Notes: a model not told the origin generated them from the letters alone. A stretch of DNA of 64,000 bases from a virus (IMGVR_UViG_3300021431_004525); one strand, 5' to 3'; positions 1-38,603 are shown, numbered from the stretch's first letter. Translations and numbers: made by a program.

Positions 1-820
1 ACGTGTTTTTGCACGGGCCTAATCGGCTATAAGACCTTTACGTTCACATTAACCAACAATTTCCACTTTTCATGCCGGCACATCTCCTAAATCATCATCG
101 TAATCACTACGTTAATGTAAACTCTCTTAGTACATGCCATTGTCAGAATTATTGCAAATCATTCCGACTGAGTTTATCCTTCTCGTCCCTGCGTTACCGC
201 TTGCCAATCAGGCCCGGTCCGCAATCTGCGCTTGAAGGTTGAGCCACTTTCCGAAAGAGAACGTAGAGAGAACCGGATATGGCATTGCCACTTACACATG
301 CAATGAAAGATTATAATCCAACAATTGACACGGGCGAATTTCATATAGTCCACTGACTTTAATTCGCAAAGGCGATGTGGCTTGTTCTCACTTTGGTCTA
401 TGCTGCGGTATCTGTGCGTCACCGTTTCACCTATATAACGGGCTGCGTTGATTAGCGTCAGCAATAAGCCTTATTTTAAATATGAATTTATATTATACTA
501 ACCTTATTTGTCAAGGCTTGTCCCTTACTCTTATCATAGTTCCAAAGTCTTATATTAATATTAAACAAATCAAATCTTACATGCCCTTTAATTGGGCGGA
601 GGTCTTGTGTCCATATTATTTGAACTATTACGGATTGGTACTAAGGTGGAATATTCCCCACAACCTCCCATCATCCATCGTTGGTTTTACAACTCCGCTA
701 ATACTTTCTTGCGGGTGTCACGGTCATTTGTTTTATTTTGACAATGCAAAGTTACAACAATTTTCTCATATTTCCAAATATTTTATGTTAAAAAGTGTAA
801 AGCCTTATGTTAAAAACCGT

Positions 821-952
821 TTAGTGTTTGCGTTTTCGTTCACCAAAGGATTTAGGGTCATTAGCAATCTCTGTTGCACCGGCTTTCAGCATTTGAGGAA
901 TACGCTCATACTCTCTTTGGGTGAAAAAATTTACGATATAAGGTGTTTCCAT
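821..952 (-). CDS. small hypothetical protein (43 aa, METPYIVNFF...)
   Basis: Translated by hand; below the ORF-track cutoff; AT-rich leader. Confidence 0.45.
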   Translation of the reverse strand: METPYIVNFFTQREYERIPQMLKAGATEIANDPKSFGERKRKH

Positions 953-980
953 ATAGATTGATATTTCTTTTTATTATTTA

Positions 981-3427: not shown

Positions 3428-3669
3428 ATACCTTAATTTTTAGATGTTATTTGAAATCGGATGCAAAGGTAAGCATAATATTTGAGACCACCAAATTTTC
3501 AGCGTTTTTTTATGATTTGTTAAGGAATACCCATGAATTGTGTTAAAGTAATGTTAAACACCTCAAAATATTTGCATAATTCAAAGAAATGTATTACCTT
3601 TGCAGTGTCAAAAGTTAAGGGAATGACACCCCACAAGTTTAACATCTTTAATTTATAGGAGAGACAAAT

Positions 3670-3957
3670 ATGACTAACAAGGATTTGATTAAGGCTTTTA
3701 TCAACGGCAAAGAGGCACAGAATAAGTCAATGCGTACCAATGGTACAAAGTTGTTCAGTTATTTTACTTGCATCGCTCAGAAGACTTCTGACGGCATTCT
3801 ATTTAACGTCTGCAAGTATAGCACGACAACAAGCAAGCAGCAGACCTACACACGAGATGAACTTGAGATACACGGAAAAAAGTTTACAGAAGTAGGTGCG
3901 GACACATACATACCGCGTGGCACATGCGACCTCACACGCTACCATAAGGCAGCATAA
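3670..3957 (+). CDS. hypothetical early protein, C-terminal -KAA
   Basis: 95 aa; promoter at 3595; AGGAGAG upstream. Confidence 0.85.
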   Translation: MTNKDLIKAFINGKEAQNKSMRTNGTKLFSYFTCIAQKTSDGILFNVCKYSTTTSKQQTYTRDELEIHGKKFTEVGADTYIPRGTCDLTRYHKAA

Positions 3958-4007
3958 GGTTAAAATAAAATTTCATTTTTTTGTTTTTTGAATTTTTATA
4001 TTTATCT

Positions 4008-4045
4008 TTCCCCTTCAGTCCGTGATGGATAGAGGGGGGATTTAT
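4008..4045 (+). terminator. hairpin terminator with inner CAGTCCGnGAnGGATAG motif (second copy 7641-7675)
   Basis: TCCCCTT-CAGTCCGTGATGGATAG-AGGGGGA and TCCGTT-CAGTCCGAGAGGATAG-GACGGA, each followed by T-rich sequence. Confidence 0.6.
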
Positions 4046-4078
4046 TTAACATTTTTTAATAAATAAAAATTGGACATG

Positions 4079-4111
4079 TTGGAAACTATACTTCAAAGTT
4101 TCACCCTTGCC
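4079..4111 (-). ncRNA. 33-nt hairpin motif RNA, copy 1
   Basis: GGCAAGGGTGAAACTTTGAAGTATAGTTTCCAA; just downstream of minus promoter at 4131; no ORF. Confidence 0.55.
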
Positions 4112-4331
4112 CTTTGTCTTTCATTGACGATACAAAGGTACAAAGAATCTTTGAAATATCCAAATAAAAATCAATTTATTTTCAACGGGTTATTGTTTTT
4201 TAACAGAAAATTAACGAATTGCAAAACTATATTAAAAAATCGCCAAAAATTTGGTAGTCTCAGATTTTTGTTGTACCTTTGCATCAGAAATCAAGGAATA
4301 ATTCCGAGATAACATAAATTAGTTTTTTAAT

Positions 4332-4592
4332 ATGGAACGTTTAGAAATAAAAAAGTACGACAAAAATTTCGGTGCATATCTTGTTATTAATACAAGTGAG
4401 TGTGAATCGTGGGCTGTAGATGGTGACAAGCCATTAATTCATGAGGTGACATCAGCCGAGGACTTTATGAATTTAGGTTTAGAGGTCTCAACCGATGGCA
4501 GACCGTTCACAGACCTCAAAATAGGTGAAAAAGTTGCCGATATTGATTTTGGCGGTGACTATGAGGGTGTATATGTAATGAGAGTTGGTTAA
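4332..4592 (+). CDS. hypothetical early protein
   Basis: 86 aa; promoter at 4274. Confidence 0.8.
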   Translation: MERLEIKKYDKNFGAYLVINTSECESWAVDGDKPLIHEVTSAEDFMNLGLEVSTDGRPFTDLKIGEKVADIDFGGDYEGVYVMRVG

Positions 4593-4697
4593 CATCTTTT
4601 AACAATTCTGAAATGCTTTTTAACTAAAATAATTTGCATATTTCAGAAAAATGTATTACCTTTGCAGTGTCAAATTAAAAATCAATTCATATAAGTT

Positions 4698-5045
4698 ATG
4701 GTCAGAACAGAATATCAGATAAAATTGAAAAGCGGCTTATATGTCGGCTTAGTAAATTTCGGCAGAACCTATAAGGCTTGCAAGAAGGCTTGCCGTTTGA
4801 GTGGAATCACGGAAGATACCGCAAAGCGTCTCGCAATGGATTGGGATGGCGAATTAACAGAGTTTACGCTTCTCCCGTGTGTGATGTCCAACTATGGCGA
4901 AGGATGGGACGTGGAATGTTTTTGCGCCACGAAAGAGGAGGCAAAGGCAGACCTTCAATCCTACCGTGAGAATTGCCGTGATGCGGCATTCCAAATAAAG
5001 TGGAAATGGAGTGAAAGATACATCAGCCTCAAGGAGGTTGCATAG
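4698..5045 (+). CDS. hypothetical early protein, C-terminal -EVA
   Basis: 115 aa; promoter at 4657. Confidence 0.8.
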   Translation: MVRTEYQIKLKSGLYVGLVNFGRTYKACKKACRLSGITEDTAKRLAMDWDGELTEFTLLPCVMSNYGEGWDVECFCATKEEAKADLQSYRENCRDAAFQIKWKWSERYISLKEVA

Positions 5046-5221
5046 AGATACGCGAAGGGGTGGCTACCCTTCTATTAGGAAAAGTAACAGAGCCTAACGT
5101 AGAAGCAAGACCAAAGTGTTTACCCTCAAAACATTTTTTAACAATTCATTTAAGTTTCTTTAGCACGAAAAAGTTGCATAATTCAGATTTTATTCGTACC
5201 TTTGTAGTACAAAAATAAAGA

Positions 5222-5254
5222 GGTAGGAGTGAAATCCTAAAGTATGGTCTCCGA
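5222..5254 (+). ncRNA. 33-nt hairpin motif RNA, copy 2
   Basis: GGTAGGAGTGAAATCCTAAAGTATGGTCTCCGA; downstream of promoter at 5197. Confidence 0.55.
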
Positions 5255-5402
5255 CACGAGCCAATTAAAATTGTTAATATTCCTTAATTTTTAACATTCT
5301 TTAACAAAAATAACTGGGCAAAAATTTGTATATTCCAAAAAATTGTCGTACCTTTGCACTATCAAAAATGAATTAGTAATAACCCTTTAATATTAATAAG
5401 GT

Positions 5403-5564
5403 ATGGTAGCAATAAATAAAAATCATCTGAAAATTGGACGTTACACAATCCAACATGATTGGAATGAAGGTTTTGTTGTCCTTGATGAAGAAGGTCAGCA
5501 GTACGGAAGTGGCTACGACCATGTATGTGATGCAATCGAACAAGTTTTGATGTATAACGACTGA
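5403..5564 (+). CDS. small hypothetical protein (53 aa)
   Basis: MVAINKNHLKIGRYTIQHDW...; promoter at 5349. Confidence 0.65.
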   Translation: MVAINKNHLKIGRYTIQHDWNEGFVVLDEEGQQYGSGYDHVCDAIEQVLMYND

Positions 5565-5705
5565 GAATTGTTAAAGGAGGTTAAAACCAGTGTTAAAAAC
5601 TGTAAATCCCTTGGTTATTCCAAAAAATATTCGTAACTTTGCATCGTCAAAATAAGACAAGTAATTCACATTAAGTTTAATTCTAAAAAATAGGAGATTT
5701 AAGTT

Positions 5706-6245
5706 ATGGCAAAAAATTCAGTTGAAACCGCAATTCGTAACGCTGCAAGCAGCAAGGTGGCAGGCAAGTTCAATCTTCCGCAGTACAAGAAAGAAGGTAC
5801 AAAGCATTATGACGAGCGACAGAAGGCACTTCTGCACAAGCGTATCTGTGAGGAAATCGTAGCCTTTGCAGACAGCCACAAGGACATCCCATTCTATTTC
5901 ATCCTTCAAGTAGGTGTCTCTAAGGGTGCTTTCAAAATGTCGGAGTTTGAGAAGGGTTACAAGCAGTTCAAGGCTTGCAAGGTGGAGCAAGTTCACATGA
6001 TGGGCATGGAGTACAACAAGTACAACGGACTTGAGGGAAAGAAGATGTCAGACGTGACCATCCGTTTGGTGATGCGTTACTACGAGAAAGTTAGCAGTGA
6101 TTTCGTGACGTTCATCAACGACCTCAACAAGTCCGAGAAATTGGGCAAGCAGTGTGGGGCACGCGGCAATTACGAAGCACTCTGCAAGAACCTTAATATC
6201 CCCGTCAAGGAGACCGAGGACAAGCCAATGGCAGATGCAGCCTAA
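5706..6245 (+). CDS. hypothetical early protein, C-terminal -DAA
   Basis: 179 aa; promoter at 5634; AGGAG upstream. Confidence 0.85.
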   Translation: MAKNSVETAIRNAASSKVAGKFNLPQYKKEGTKHYDERQKALLHKRICEEIVAFADSHKDIPFYFILQVGVSKGAFKMSEFEKGYKQFKACKVEQVHMMGMEYNKYNGLEGKKMSDVTIRLVMRYYEKVSSDFVTFINDLNKSEKLGKQCGARGNYEALCKNLNIPVKETEDKPMADAA

Positions 6246-6246
6246 A

Positions 6247-6262
6247 TGTTCCACGTGGAACA
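6247..6262. promoter_or_regulatory. parS-like palindrome TGTTCCACGTGGAACA
   Basis: Perfect 16-bp palindrome fitting the bacterial parS consensus TGTTNCACGTGNAACA. Confidence 0.7.
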
Positions 6263-6379
6263 TCAACCAAAGGGGAAGGGTATAACGCTCTTCCCTTAAT
6301 TTTTTTAACTATGTTAAAAGTGTTAATTTGCTTGCGTAATTCAATTATTTTTTGTACCTTTGCAGTAGAAAAATTAAAA

Positions 6380-6412
6380 GGTAGGGGTGAAACTCTAAAG
6401 TATAGTCTCCAA
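6380..6412 (+). ncRNA. 33-nt hairpin motif RNA, copy 3
   Basis: GGTAGGGGTGAAACTCTAAAGTATAGTCTCCAA; downstream of promoter at 6355. Confidence 0.55.
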
Positions 6413-6604
6413 TACACCCCATTATATAAATGTGAATTTTATTTAATATTATATGAATGTTATATAATTTTAACATTTTCGTACTATACTATCAGAAATG
6501 TTAATTTAATGTTAAACATACGAATTTCCTTGGTTATTTGAAAAAATTGTATTACCTTTGCATCACAATTAAAAAACAAGTTAAACATTCAAATATTAAA
6601 TAAT

Positions 6605-6862
6605 ATGTTCGGAAAAGGTTCTAAATATAGTTTCAATGGTGACGGCAATTTAGATTGTCAGTTTCTCACCTCCACCTTTGAGGATGGATATCCATATTCT
6701 GTAGGTGTCGTGAATCATACCAAAAAAACGGTTAACCCTGTTCATGGCTACCACTACCCAAACAGATGCGCAAAAGGTCTTATGAACTATGCGCTTAAAT
6801 TAGGCTACACCTATGAGGACAGCGAAATGCCAAACAAATTGAATAAAACAATTAAAAACTAA
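6605..6862 (+). CDS. hypothetical early protein
   Basis: 85 aa; promoter at 6553. Confidence 0.75.
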   Translation: MFGKGSKYSFNGDGNLDCQFLTSTFEDGYPYSVGVVNHTKKTVNPVHGYHYPNRCAKGLMNYALKLGYTYEDSEMPNKLNKTIKN

Positions 6863-6867
6863 ATGAT

Positions 6868-6990
6868 ATGATATACTTTGTAAATGGTAAGGCTAAATTT
6901 GCCTTCGGTGACAAGTCAATGAACGACCATGCAAGACAAGTCATGGATAATCTGAAATGTAAAGAAACCGGAAAAAGATTTGCTGCTTAA
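6868..6990 (+). CDS. small hypothetical protein (40 aa), C-terminal -FAA
   Basis: MIYFVNGKAKFAFGDKSMNDHARQVMDNLKCKETGKRFAA; translated by hand. Confidence 0.65.
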   Translation: MIYFVNGKAKFAFGDKSMNDHARQVMDNLKCKETGKRFAA

Positions 6991-7083
6991 CATTCTTTAG
7001 CACGGAATATTTGCATATATCAGATTTTATGACTATCTTTGCACCATCAAATTTAAGTTTAACGTTTTAATTCATTTAAAGTT

Positions 7084-7608
7084 ATGGCATACGATATTAA
7101 CAACATCATGGCAAAGGAAAACGCAATGCGCGACCCTAAGAACGTAACAGAATGGAAACAGCAACGAGAAATGTTACGCGACTATCTGATACCCATCAGC
7201 ACTGCTGAAAACGTCTCTGTGGGCGAAATATACGGCTTCTGCCCCTATATCATTTATGTAAGGATGGACGCACTGAAGCGAGAGGATTGGCCGAATAACA
7301 TCGCCGAAAATTCCATCTATATCGACTTTAAAATAGACCTTTTTAACAAAAAGGTGGAAGTACATCAAAATGGGCATATTTGGCTTTCACCATACGACAA
7401 AACAACACCAAAGTACAAGTATCTCGCCATGAAGTCAATGCAAGACGTATTGGTCGACAATGGTGGCAAGAAGTTCCGCAAACAGGGCTATAAGGACATT
7501 AAAGACCTTGCCAACAAAATGCAGAAGTATTACGCACAAGTCATGGAAGCCGTCAATGACTACACCGATGGCTATCCATACAAACAAGGAACAAAACAAG
7601 CGGCATAA
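7084..7608 (+). CDS. hypothetical early protein, C-terminal -QAA
   Basis: 174 aa; promoter at 7034. Confidence 0.85.
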   Translation: MAYDINNIMAKENAMRDPKNVTEWKQQREMLRDYLIPISTAENVSVGEIYGFCPYIIYVRMDALKREDWPNNIAENSIYIDFKIDLFNKKVEVHQNGHIWLSPYDKTTPKYKYLAMKSMQDVLVDNGGKKFRKQGYKDIKDLANKMQKYYAQVMEAVNDYTDGYPYKQGTKQAA

Positions 7609-7721
7609 ACAGATTTTTTAAATTAATACTATGTTGTTAGTCCGTTCAGTCCGAGAGGATAGGACGGATTTTATTTTACTTACATTTTGAAACATAAATT
7701 AACATATTATCAATGGATGGG

Positions 7722-7783
7722 TCGGAGATTATACTCTAAGGTGTCACCCTTACCAATCATCCATCGTTGGTTTTACAACTCCG
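7722..7783 (-). ncRNA. 62-nt structured RNA containing copy 4 of the 33-nt motif
   Basis: CGGAG...CTCCG closing stem; first 28 nt identical to 670-697; motif GGTAAGGGTGACACCTTAGAGTATAATCTCCGA at 7722-7754. Confidence 0.55.
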
Positions 7784-7796
7784 AAACTCGTTTGTG

Positions 7797-7939
7797 TGAC
7801 TCATTGGGGAATCGAACCCCAAAGGTGAACATTTTTGCCGACAGCACCATCTGTTTCCGACTACTCATGCGCTGACACCATACTTTATCATAGGATTGGT
7901 AGTCCTAAAAGCCTCCAAGCCAGCCTTATCGTTTGAGCC
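7797..7939 (-). ncRNA. tRNA-like RNA (143 nt) with oversized variable region
   Basis: Acceptor GGCTCA/TGAGTC; T arm TGGGG-TTCGATT-CCCCA; anticodon-like arm TAGGA-CTACCAA-TCCTA; promoter at 7979. Confidence 0.6.
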
Positions 7940-8172
7940 TTTGTTATTTGAAAGAACGCCTTTTATTTCTTTTGACGATGCAAAGGTACAAAATAATCTT
8001 GAATTTCTATGTTAATTGACTGTTAAAAATTCGTTAAAAAACGTTCAATTGTTAAATAAACTAAATCCACTAAAAATAAATTCATTTTTTCTTGCATATA
8101 TCAGTTTTTTTCCGTACCTTTGCATCGTGAAATTAAAACAAATAGTAATAACTCTTTAATACATTATTTATT

Positions 8173-9276
8173 ATGACACAGATTTTGAATATCAACGGAC
8201 AGAGTAACGTGAGCGTTAATCCTAACACAGAGACGGGCGCACAGCGTGTAGCATGGCAGCAGTTCGGTACAATCTGCGAGAAGGGTGCAACCATCCACGA
8301 CGTTATGGCAGACGTAACAAGTGAAAACCGCATTAACTATGAGGTTGGCGAAATGCCACTGATGCGTGTACCTTCTGAAATGGTTGAGGCTATCCGCAAA
8401 GGTGAGGCTTTCGATTGGAATCCGTCAGTGTCCGACATCATCAGCACCCATAAGGCTACGCTGCGCACTGACAATAACGACACACTTGGTATCGTAGGTA
8501 AGGGCTACGGAATCGTGCAGAACAGCAAGGCTTTCGACTTCATGGACTTCATTAAGGAGGCAAGCGGTAGTGAACCCGTTATCGAATCCTATGGCGCACT
8601 TGGCTATGGCGAACGTATGTTCATCACTGCCACACTTGGTGAGGATTCGTATCTTAACCCTAACGACGCAATCAAGAACTATGTGGTGTTCACTAACTCA
8701 CATGATGGCAGTGGCGGTGTCATGGCTTTCTTCACCCCGATTCGTGTGATTTGTCAGAACACGCTGAACATGGCTATTAAGGGCTGCGCCAACAAAGTGG
8801 TGTTCAAGCACACTTCTAAGGTCGACGAGCGTCTTGATTGGACTATCGAGCGCAACCGCAAAATTGCTGCTGAACTTTTCAGCAAGTCAGTGAAATTTAG
8901 CGACAAGTTCATGGAGCGTATGCTTGGACTCAAGGAGGAGACCATCACTGCTGAATATGCACGAGACTTCGTAGGCAAGTTGTGTCTGACTGCTCCCGCC
9001 TTTGAACTTTGGAAGAAGGCTGACTTCAAGGCTGACCACGTTGAGGAAATCAGCACACGGACAAAGAACATTATGGCAGCCCTGACGGACAGCATCGAGA
9101 ATGGAGTAGGACAGGAGTACAATCGTGGCACAAAGGTGTGGCTGCTGAATGGTGTGACTACCTACCTTCAGAATGAGAAAAATTGGAAATCTCAGGAAGA
9201 CAAGTTCAACGCTATGATGTTCGGTAGCGCACAGAAGAAGGTCGAGGATGCTTACCAACTGCTGATGGCTGCGTAA
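8173..9276 (+). CDS. DUF932/DUF945 (phage/plasmid-like) protein, C-terminal -MAA
   Basis: Motifs LGIVGKGYGIVQNSKAF, NSHDGSG, TPIRVICQNTL, KHT, W.LLNGVT. Confidence 0.85.
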   Translation: MTQILNINGQSNVSVNPNTETGAQRVAWQQFGTICEKGATIHDVMADVTSENRINYEVGEMPLMRVPSEMVEAIRKGEAFDWNPSVSDIISTHKATLRTDNNDTLGIVGKGYGIVQNSKAFDFMDFIKEASGSEPVIESYGALGYGERMFITATLGEDSYLNPNDAIKNYVVFTNSHDGSGGVMAFFTPIRVICQNTLNMAIKGCANKVVFKHTSKVDERLDWTIERNRKIAAELFSKSVKFSDKFMERMLGLKEETITAEYARDFVGKLCLTAPAFELWKKADFKADHVEEISTRTKNIMAALTDSIENGVGQEYNRGTKVWLLNGVTTYLQNEKNWKSQEDKFNAMMFGSAQKKVEDAYQLLMAA

Positions 9277-36182: not shown

Positions 36183-38603
36183 ATGTTTGAAGCGAATTTT
36201 ACTAACGAAGCGGCTAATGTATTTCAATATATAAAAGATAATTTAATTAAGAAATATCCGTCAGATAAGATTACAATAGAGTATTTTATATTGTCTATTT
36301 TAGAAAACGAAGATTCAATCGGTTATCAGATACTATCTAAATCGACATTGACAAGTACACTGAATGGCATACACGATTGGTTTGTTCAATTTTTATCTAA
36401 GTTTAGTAATCAAAAGACCGTTGATAATATATCATATGATACTATATATGATAGGGCAATTGAACTTGCCAAGAAAGATTACAATGTTGATAATATAACT
36501 TCCGGGCATATATTGCTTTCTATCTTCAAACTTAGTGAGGGCATTTCTAAACAATTTAAACAGATTGGAATAACATACAACCAATTGTTAGCCAACCTAA
36601 ATTCAGTTTTACCGCCATCTGATAATAAGAAACCTGTTAGGGCAACCATTAAACTGCAAGTACCAAAAGGTGCTGTTGAAGAATTGTTGGTGGATATGAA
36701 TGAGTTGGCTTCAAACGGTAAGATAGATGAAGTCATTGGCAATGAAGAGACAATTAATAAAATTTTCAATATATTATCAAAACGTGACCGTAATAATGTT
36801 GTTATAGTCGGAGATTCCGGAATCGGTAAGACCGCAACGGTATCACATATTGCGAATTTATTGGTTAGTGGGAACGTACCAAAGCCTTTTAAAAACAAGA
36901 AACTTATTAAGTTCGATTTTATGAGTCTTGTTGCAGGTGCGGTTCTAAGAGGTAATTTCGAGGCAAAATTCAACGCAATTATAGCAGATGCCGTTAAAAA
37001 GGGTGGATATATATTCTTTATCGATGACTTGCAATCGATTCTATCTGATAAAAGTAAGTTCGCTGAAATCAATACGGAAAACTTACTCGACATGATTTTG
37101 ATGGAGCGTAATATCGGATTTATCTGTACGATGGATAACAGCTCGTATAATGCATACATCTATAATAATCCATCAATGAAAAGGCGTTTCCAAAAAATTG
37201 TAATGAAAGAGAAGGATATAGATACCGTCATATCAATTCTTAAATTGTGTAAGACAAAATATGAAAAATATCATAATGTATCTTACACTGATGGGGCTGT
37301 AGAAACTTGTGTAAAGTTAGTTAAACGTTACGTAAAGGATGGAAAATTGCCGGACTATGCAATAGATGTGTTCGATGAGATAGGCGCAAAAAAATCATTG
37401 GAGGTAAAAGAAGATGAACGTGTTGAGGAATGTAAGGAAAAATTAAAAGCAGTAAAAGAAAAAATCTCCAAGATTAATAATAGTACGGAAAGAAAGGATT
37501 ATGATGAGTATGATAATTTGAAAAATGAAGAGATTCTATTGAAGTCTGAGTTGTCTTTAATTGAAAAGGAAAATCTTTTGAATAATAAACCAATTGAAAT
37601 AACTGAAGATGATGTAAAAGAACAGATTTCGCTTAAAATTAATGTCCCACTTAGTAAAATAACTGAAAATGAAAGGGATAAACTTAAAAACCTTAATTCA
37701 AAATTAAAGGAATATGTAGTTGGACAAGACACTGCCGTTGATGAAGTGTGCCGTGTTGTCAAAAGACAAAGAATCGGTATGGTTAACAACAACAGACCGG
37801 CTGTATTATTCTTCAGTGGCATGACCGGAACAGGTAAAACTTATTTGGCTAAAAAACTCGCACAAGAGGTATTCGGTGATGAGAAATCGATGATAAGGCT
37901 TGATATGAGTGAGTATTCGGATAAGATGAGCGTAAATAAACTGTATGGTGCGGCAGCAGGATATATTGGCTATGATAAAGGTGGTATTCTTACAGAGGCA
38001 ATCAAAAAGAATAATCACTGTGTATTGCTGCTTGATGAAATGGAAAAGGCTAATGAAGACGTTCATAATGTATTCTTACAGTTGTTTGATGAAGGCAGGA
38101 TGACTGATAACATGGGAAATGTTGTAGATTTTTCCAATGTCATTGTAATCATGACATCCAACGTAGGTGCTAAGGAAATTGCACAAAAGGGAAAGGGTGT
38201 GGGATTTGTTAAGAATGAAAACTCGAACAACAAAGAGGCAATAGATAAAGCCATGAAGAACAAATTCAGACCGGAATTTATCAACCGTATTGATAGTGTT
38301 ATTTATTTCAATAAACTCTCAGAAGAAAATATAAAGGAGATAATTAAACTTGAAATAATCAAACTTGGAGAACGTATTGAAAATATCAAATATAAGTTAG
38401 GTGAGAGTTTTACGGATGATAGATGTATCTCTTATATATATAATAAGGTAAAGGAAGATGATGAATACGGCGCAAGACCTATTATACATACGATACAACA
38501 TGAATTTGAGGATAGGATAACAGATTATATTATTAATGAACAGCCCTCAGATGGCTTTGTTTTTGAACTGTCTGAAATAGGCTTGGAAAATATTTTAAAA
38601 TAA
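36183..38603 (+). CDS. clpC: ClpC/ClpB-type AAA+ ATPase
   Basis: Clp-N repeats; GDSGIGKT; coiled-coil M domain; GMTGTGKT; LLDEMEKA; GVGF loop; FRPEFINRID; YGARPI. Confidence 0.88.
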   Translation: MFEANFTNEAANVFQYIKDNLIKKYPSDKITIEYFILSILENEDSIGYQILSKSTLTSTLNGIHDWFVQFLSKFSNQKTVDNISYDTIYDRAIELAKKDYNVDNITSGHILLSIFKLSEGISKQFKQIGITYNQLLANLNSVLPPSDNKKPVRATIKLQVPKGAVEELLVDMNELASNGKIDEVIGNEETINKIFNILSKRDRNNVVIVGDSGIGKTATVSHIANLLVSGNVPKPFKNKKLIKFDFMSLVAGAVLRGNFEAKFNAIIADAVKKGGYIFFIDDLQSILSDKSKFAEINTENLLDMILMERNIGFICTMDNSSYNAYIYNNPSMKRRFQKIVMKEKDIDTVISILKLCKTKYEKYHNVSYTDGAVETCVKLVKRYVKDGKLPDYAIDVFDEIGAKKSLEVKEDERVEECKEKLKAVKEKISKINNSTERKDYDEYDNLKNEEILLKSELSLIEKENLLNNKPIEITEDDVKEQISLKINVPLSKITENERDKLKNLNSKLKEYVVGQDTAVDEVCRVVKRQRIGMVNNNRPAVLFFSGMTGTGKTYLAKKLAQEVFGDEKSMIRLDMSEYSDKMSVNKLYGAAAGYIGYDKGGILTEAIKKNNHCVLLLDEMEKANEDVHNVFLQLFDEGRMTDNMGNVVDFSNVIVIMTSNVGAKEIAQKGKGVGFVKNENSNNKEAIDKAMKNKFRPEFINRIDSVIYFNKLSEENIKEIIKLEIIKLGERIENIKYKLGESFTDDRCISYIYNKVKEDDEYGARPIIHTIQHEFEDRITDYIINEQPSDGFVFELSEIGLENILK

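Follow-up and report, generated by a model that had tools for sequence, protein, structure and literature searches.

What do the short repeated units between the early-type genes of a large uncultured phage encode? The question is raised by a viral DNA of 64,000 nt (IMGVR_UViG_3300021431_004525, hereafter the window), which carries four copies of a 33-nt motif in its first 8 kb. In the original prediction, made from the sequence alone, these copies were taken for a family of tiny early RNAs, possibly decoys for a host RNA-binding or defence protein. We found that the motif belongs to a family of small early RNAs that are driven by promoters and do not code for protein, of which 231 distinct copies with 194 distinct 33-nt cores were pooled from all loci. 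The stem of the motif covaries, its RNA strand is defined, and the copies are linked to promoters, clustered in several copies and independent of downstream open reading frames (ORFs). The family, widespread and not described before, falls into a known general class, the phage-encoded small RNA (sRNA), and has an unusual multicopy cassette layout.

Four copies of the motif in the window

All four copies were recovered where they had been predicted: a degenerate 33-nt consensus matched the window exactly four times with 0 mismatches, and 0 of 100 shuffles gave any match. A covariance model (R1) run with filters off returned the same four copies at 60–66 bits and nothing else in the 64 kb, the next match having E=0.1. 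The stems and the GTGAAA or GTGACA loops of all four are as claimed (Table 1). Three copies lie behind a promoter of their own, the -7 box (TAnnTTTG) being 16–23 nt from the start of the stem, and, again in agreement with the prediction, no conserved ORF was found after any of the four. A 76-aa frame (6311–6541) overlaps copy 3; it begins upstream of the copy 3 promoter and has no counterpart at other loci. The promoter of copy 3 is itself preceded by an intrinsic terminator (6271–6297) of the gene at 5706–6245. Rfam 15 scans, with the gathering score or with E up to 10, gave no match within 3900–8200, and the only known RNA in the window is a tRNA-Arg (1526–1601).

A covarying hairpin with a conserved loop and tail

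Covariation of the stem in a larger alignment had been named beforehand as a test of the prediction, and it was observed. Among 143 distinct copies, aligned by fitting to the covariance model, 99.7% of the stem cells pair and 205 cells are changed on both sides, values reached in 0 of 500 shuffles; with the 3' strand slid out of register, pairing was at most 60%. Independently of the model, a regular expression blind to pairing gave 367 matches, 332 of them with all five stem pairs. The stem is always 5 bp in the 231 copies and occurs in 34 variants, all of Watson-Crick or G.U pairs. Mutual information over 70 columns recovered no pairs other than the four variable ones of the stem, and RNAalifold applied to 106-nt units predicted only the 5-bp hairpin. 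One stem pair is G.U in 39 of the 143 copies; since this would be C.A on the opposite strand, the RNA has the same sense as the promoter. Single hairpins are weak (-4 to -7 kcal/mol, z about 0) and have no U-tract, and it is because of the covariation, not the folding energy, that the hairpin is judged to be real.

The loop has the consensus G/A-U-R-A-N-A with position 5 free, the most frequent forms in the 231 copies being GUGAAA (60), GUAAAA (45), GUGACA (34), GUAAUA (22) and GUAACA (21). The proposed mimicry of the 690 loop of 16S rRNA did not hold, as the GUGAAA form is confined to these 60 copies and the model misses the 690 hairpin in 11 Bacteroidales 16S genes. As these genes had been retrieved for being identical to the 690-loop sequence, the invariance of the rRNA loop among them results from their selection. 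The tail is single-stranded, 13 nt long and nearly invariant (RAGUAU-NN-UYUCC), only positions 7–8 being free (A/U/G and G/A/U, respectively). The AGG on the 5' side of the stem is pair-compatible with the UYU of the tail in 99, 96 and 89% of copies at the three positions, with one-sided, pairing-preserving transitions only and no double changes. Such a 3-bp helix, which would make RAGUAUNN an 8-nt bulge, may exist; the sequences are compatible with it but do not prove it. Two other interactions were rejected: for a pseudoknot between the loop and a downstream CAC, the loop variants do not covary with the CAC and mutual information is empty, and the leader paired no better with the tail or the downstream region than shuffled leaders did.

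Promoters, orientation and transcript ends

A -7 box is located 10–41 nt upstream in 204 of the 231 copies, with modes at 15–21 and 28–30 nt; from the box to the start of the stem, the distance across all copies is 12–43 nt. In a complete 351-kb phage (IMGVR_UViG_3300045988_162489), four copies are co-oriented with leftward genes, while three minus-strand copies, at 321505, 322445 and 323799, are placed among rightward genes and run opposite to them. For the 207 copies that could be classified, the next feature is a co-oriented ORF in 103, the 3' end of a convergent ORF in 38 (at least 18%) and neither in 66. The convergent layout recurs with particular genes. Among the homologues of a 95-aa protein (3670–3957 in the window), 13 of 22 have the motif 75–128 nt past the stop codon on the opposite strand, down to 32% identity, and the same layout is found for 10 of 15 homologues of a 174-aa protein (7084–7608); with both families it is kept down to 32–45% protein identity. 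This convergent and antisense placement indicates that the motif copies are autonomous transcription units and not leaders. Where motif and gene stand in tandem, a separate consensus promoter for the downstream gene lies 75–145 nt beyond the motif.

Two long hairpins, folded one by one, are each common to the RNA of a motif copy and to the gene convergent with it (Table 1). Judged by sequence, they are likely two-way terminators that form the 3' ends of the copy 1 and copy 4 RNAs. Both contain a conserved inner hairpin (CAGUCC, a GNRA-type loop and GGAUAG), which is also seen across phages (loci L093, L008 and L097) and looks like a reusable terminator module.

Beyond the tail, a GTTAA box lies at a distance of exactly 20 nt from the UCC in 124 of the 231 copies, often with a TTAAC 10–14 nt further. 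GTTAA and TTAAC words are common between the genes of the window (e.g. 4593–4640, 5255–5330 and 6413–6540) and upstream of nearly every early promoter, often as inverted pairs 10–25 nt apart; they are possibly operator sites of some regulator. A box of the AAAUUGUUAA type 3' of the motif led to the idea of a RegA-like repressor; the single match obtained (12 bits, E=0.04) is not credible.

Table 1. Motif copies in the window and the features associated with them
Feature	Position	Strand	Description
Copy 1	4079–4111	-	GG, stem CAAGG/CTTTG, loop GUGAAA, tail; 63.9 bits
Copy 1 promoter	4133–4164	-	Bacteroidota type: TTTG, 20 nt, TACCTTTG; 21 nt from end of -7 box to motif
Long hairpin	4008–4040	both	Common to copy 1 RNA and convergent 95-aa gene; -18.8 kcal/mol (+), -13.2 kcal/mol (-)
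Copy 2	5222–5254	+	Stem TAGGA/TCCTA, loop GUGAAA; 61.9 bits
Copy 2 promoter	5174–5204	+	-7 box TACCTTTG at 5197–5204; 17 nt to motif
GTTAA box of copy 2	5273–5277	+	20 nt beyond tail
Copy 3	6380–6412	+	Stem TAGGG/CTCTA including a G.U pair, loop GUGAAA; 65.7 bits
Copy 3 promoter	6327–6362	+	-7 box at 6355–6362; 17 nt to motif
Copy 4	7722–7754	-	Stem TAAGG/CCTTA, loop GUGACA; 60.4 bits
GTTAA box of copy 4	7699–7703	-	20 nt beyond tail
GNRA-capped long hairpin	7639–7670	both	Common to copy 4 RNA and 174-aa gene; -16.7 kcal/mol, z -4.1 (+); -9.8 kcal/mol (-)
Degenerate tRNA-like element	7796–7873	-	Between upstream promoter and copy 4; perfect T arm
-7 box upstream of copy 4	7981–7988	-	Drives tRNA-like element and copy 4; 226 nt upstream of motif

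The phage and the distribution of the motif

The window encodes terminase, portal, tail and Lon-like proteins, as expected of a tailed phage, and its terminase shares about 27% identity with those of T4-like myoviruses, the best match being Flavobacterium phage immuto. It has Bacteroidota-type promoters (TTTG, about 20 nt, TAnnTTTG); 11 of the 25 strict matches fall in the first 8 kb, where their density is highest, and the motif copies sit among ORFan genes in this promoter-dense, early-type region. Motif-bearing contigs are 237–351 kb long, one of them 100% complete by CheckV, and the completeness values imply genomes of about 350–390 kb. Taken together, the tailed-phage proteins, the T4-like terminase, the Bacteroidota promoters and the contig completeness indicate that the window is part of an uncultured T4-like jumbo phage with a Bacteroidales host.

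The source phages of the motif are uncultured T4-like jumbo phages of the human gut and rumen. When R1 was run on whole contigs, 3, 6, 7, 8, 7, 9 and 3 copies were detected, always in clusters within 10–25 kb. Of the places in which a search had been proposed originally, phage genomes and Rfam, the motif recurs in related jumbo phages, and Rfam has nothing like it. A pattern scan of IMG/VR yielded at least 21 loci; among the matches listed, those with a paired stem all lie just behind a Bacteroidota promoter and those with an unpaired stem lie in coding sequence. In metagenome contigs, a stricter pattern was found in at least 120 stretches from human-gut and other coded metagenome records, the densest among the matches listed having 8 copies in 12.6 kb. 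A strict scan of 185,579 species genomes gave 66 matches in total, which is the chance level; only 5 had a perfect stem, and all of these are on short, phage-like contigs of metagenome-assembled genomes (MAGs), behind the same type of promoter. Nothing credible was found by R1 in 150 further genomes of the Bacteroidales, the order of one motif-bearing MAG, the sole match (E=5e-4) being in coding sequence. Megablast and blastn searches with the region and the core gave no match in cultured phages, and the motif model found no copy in immuto, the nearest cultured relative by terminase. Literal tail sequences in the literature matched only unrelated primers.

Proposed function

The explanation that we place first, while holding it tentatively, is that the motif is the core of an RNA made early and in abundance, which would act by titrating or recruiting a protein. 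According to this proposal, the copies would be stand-alone genes for non-coding RNAs of roughly 60–130 nt, transcribed in the early region by the host RNA polymerase from consensus Bacteroidota promoters. The functional core would consist of a short A-rich 5' leader ending in AGG, the weak but strictly paired hairpin, the G-U-R-A-N-A hexaloop and the 13-nt tail. Its binding partner would be a protein: a conserved host factor, titrated or redirected early in infection, or else a phage protein that is recruited. Extended base-pairing, or an effect in cis on the transcript that carries the core, appears improbable as the mode of action. Recognition by a protein is favoured because the stem is weak but strictly paired, because fixed bases are split by free ones and because no complementary RNA partner was found in the phage DNA or in a host rRNA operon; the strong early promoters and the multiplication of the gene also count towards an abundant RNA that titrates or recruits a protein. 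Within this scheme, a decoy for a host RNA-binding or defence protein, as first suggested, is plausible and would be the most plausible class of mechanism. That the RNA represents a new class of phage takeover factor is possible but doubtful.

Several observations weigh against this proposal. About half of the copies have a co-oriented promoter and gene within about 100–140 nt, which leaves room for read-through and for a leader role of those copies that precede co-oriented genes. The 3' ends of the RNAs were deduced from hairpins alone. Sequence alone likewise leaves room for short seed pairing (at most 7 nt) with a host RNA. Finally, the 95-aa protein convergent with copy 1 offers no clue to a partner, since its confident AlphaFold model (pLDDT 94) had no Foldseek match with E<=0.001 (best VIA Z 3.9).

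Alternative explanations

That the RNA is a trans-acting base-pairing sRNA, with the tail as a seed for a conserved host mRNA or other RNA or for the few phage leaders of the AUAGGAGA type, is unlikely. It is true that the tail is invariant and single-stranded with a pyrimidine-rich end, and that the FopS sRNAs provide a precedent of multicopy sRNAs having a conserved single-stranded seed and sigma-ABfr promoters (PMC11697453). The AUAGGAGA leader is found at three early genes (5685–5705, 3650–3669 and 2037–2056 on the minus strand); Shine-Dalgarno-like leaders are rare in the window (7 of 69 ORFs), but this one is retained in about half of the homologues of a 179-aa early protein, and GGAGAUU pairs with the tail over 7 nt. 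However, where both leader and tail are conserved, their complementarity extends over just 5 nt, and two free positions inside the tail would be unusual for a seed. In about 1 Mb of related phage DNA, only 2 non-trivial matches to a 12-nt tail-complement pattern and no extended complement were detected, and the best duplexes of the tail with a Bacteroidales rRNA operon (-12 to -16 kcal/mol) are inside the shuffled range. The suggestion in the original prediction that the tail pairs with the GGAGA leaders of early genes gained no support. A role in cis, as a promoter-proximal leader for put/nut-like modification of the polymerase or for control of the downstream message, is quite unlikely. The motif lies 14–30 nt after promoters, its hairpin and conserved linear element resemble boxB/boxA and put sites, and the 103 copies followed by a co-oriented ORF would suit such a role, but at least 38 of the 207 are oriented so that transcription would meet a hairpin terminator and the 3' end of a convergent gene, copy 4 is at the 3' end of a non-coding transcript, and genes downstream of the motif have a consensus promoter of their own, with no terminator between motif and promoter in the tandem units. 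Nor do the motif copies lie, as put and nut RNAs do, between a promoter and the terminators or genes that they control, and a NusG-like protein is absent from five phage contigs, including the complete 351-kb genome.

Three further explanations have still less in their favour. The units could be DNA cassettes of the PeSL (promoter-early stem-loop) type, that is, recombination linkers or transcriptional insulators shuffling early ORFans in the hyperplastic region of a T4-like phage. The terminase is T4-like, the copies lie among ORFans in a promoter-dense region, and PeSLs are strong early promoters with stem-loops in such regions (PMC2839356). This is nonetheless very unlikely: the motif stem is within the transcript, not in or before the promoter, and is not a terminator, since it is weak, only 5 bp long and without a U-tract. 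Copies of the same genome differ in the stem and yet pair, with strand-specific G.U, which indicates selection at the level of RNA rather than DNA homology, and the tail is invariant across phages whose proteins are only 30–45% identical. An origin or primer transcript, forming R-loops in the AT-rich DNA beyond as at oriF and oriG of T4, is highly improbable; the copies do cluster at a centre of divergent transcription with AT-rich DNA downstream and a 16-bp palindrome nearby (6247–6262), but it is not evident why a primer would need its loop and tail to be invariant, and there are up to 9 copies per genome in both orientations. The least probable of all is an RNA anti-CRISPR, either a mimic of a solitary repeat (Racr) or a viral guide or trans-activating CRISPR RNA (tracrRNA) mimic that loads host Cas proteins. 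A solitary, promoter-driven hairpin unit of about 33 nt in a phage is Racr-like (PMC10651486), and Cas9 is encoded in 66 of the 151 Bacteroidales genomes sampled. Against this, the motif was found in the 185,579 species genomes only on phage-like contigs and in no CRISPR array, and not at all in the 150 Bacteroidales genomes. The two Bacteroidales type II-C repeats that were compared, and their tracrRNAs, are unlike it, and viral single guide RNAs (sgRNAs) are defined by repeat:anti-repeat stems of 7 bp or more, which the 5-bp stem does not reach. The Racr-type mimicry proposed originally likewise gained no support, and we return to an early RNA that acts through a protein as the preferred reading.

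If the RNA is indeed a takeover factor of a new class, no RNA-based system for host takeover or anti-defence would have been described before it for phages of gut Bacteroidales. Should the bound protein be a host factor, the RNA would also show which target these phages have to neutralise before any other. The order Bacteroidales is dominant in the human gut and in the rumen. To our knowledge, their phylum lacks Hfq, ProQ and most Shine-Dalgarno usage, and the interplay of phage and host at the RNA level is almost unexplored there. The motif is small, clean and very widespread; it merits an Rfam entry, which would help to annotate seemingly empty intergenic phage cassettes. Textbook covariation and a defined promoter make it an easy experimental handle, and the RNA could be used as bait or expressed from a plasmid without culturing the phage.

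The copy 4 unit and neighbouring genes

Copy 4 has no promoter of its own and sits at the 3' end of a non-coding transcription unit, whereas in related contigs the orthologous copies lie close to a promoter. An outer stem forms around copy 4 (about 7757–7765 with 7712–7721). The tRNA-like element upstream of copy 4 is called as Ser (GCT) by ARAGORN at a relaxed threshold only and is not called by standard RNA scans; it is a possible candidate for a processing handle. An identical 28-nt segment occurs at 670–697, where it overlaps a frame at 482–961(+), and at 7756–7783, in each case heading a minus-strand non-coding unit. One of these two units ends in the motif (copy 4), and the other in a different hairpin (GUGG/CCAC) followed by UUAGUAC; the common head on two different units suggests modular sRNAs.

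The 95-aa early protein family (gene at 3670–3957 on the plus strand) has a conserved KYSxTTSKxQ motif and is without an assigned Pfam or PHROG function or a fold match in PDB. Searches of the neighbouring early proteins against PHROGs and Pfam gave nothing informative. The proteins encoded at 3670–3957, 5706–6245 and 7084–7608 end in Ala-Ala (KAA, DAA and QAA, respectively), an end that is absent from more distant homologues of the 95-aa family, and the gene of the Lon-like protease is at 36183–38603. The perfect 16-bp palindrome mentioned above, TGTTCCACGTGGAACA, immediately follows the stop codon of the gene at 5706–6245.

Comparison with known systems

Lambda nut (boxA/boxB) and HK022 put sites combine a promoter-proximal RNA hairpin, about 5 bp long and closed by a conserved purine-rich loop, with a conserved linear element. 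The motif shares with both the size and promoter-proximal position of the hairpin, the conserved loop and the conserved linear element. It differs in that many copies have no downstream operon, in its far higher copy number and in that no N-like or NusG-like partner was found for it (for NusG, in the five contigs).

PeSLs of T4-type phages consist of GC-rich terminators in or next to a promoter, directly upstream of an ORF, and act as patches of DNA homology (PMC2839356). The motif units resemble them as repeated, strong, early host-type promoters with a stem-loop, located among the ORFans of the hyperplastic region of a T4-like phage. No stable terminator is present at the promoter, upstream of the transcription start; instead, the motif stem is weak, lies about 10–25 nt into the transcript and comes with a loop and a tail that are conserved, and in many cases no ORF follows it.

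Racrs are defined by their likeness to a host CRISPR repeat (PMC10651486), and viral sgRNAs by repeat:anti-repeat stems of at least 7 bp (bioRxiv 10.64898/2026.06.01.729453). Like these, the motif is a phage-encoded, promoter-driven, solitary small RNA with a conserved hairpin that would load a host protein, and its copies in the viral genome are solitary units without adjacent cas genes or spacers. In contrast to Racrs, the motif is present in 3–9 dispersed copies, each with a constant 13-nt tail, and no matching repeat was found in the genomes scanned or in the two repeats compared; as to viral sgRNAs, the tail bears no relation to the 3' portion of either of two Bacteroidales tracrRNAs.

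The FopS and GibS RNAs of Bacteroides thetaiotaomicron are multicopy, RbpB-associated sRNAs (PMC11697453). There is no sequence relation between these and the motif, and FopS is in Rfam, whereas Rfam scans of the motif region are empty. In FopS, a single-stranded seed at the 5' end precedes a terminator, whereas the hairpin of the motif is internal, covaries and bears a conserved loop, and the motif is phage-encoded and was not found in the 150 genomes of the host order. The likeness lies in the multicopy sRNAs of the 65–70-nt class, the canonical sigma-ABfr promoters (TTTG / TAnnTTTG), the conserved single-stranded region and the intergenic or antisense location of the copies, and by analogy the multicopy, RbpB-bound FopS family would be the closest host counterpart of the phage RNA described here.

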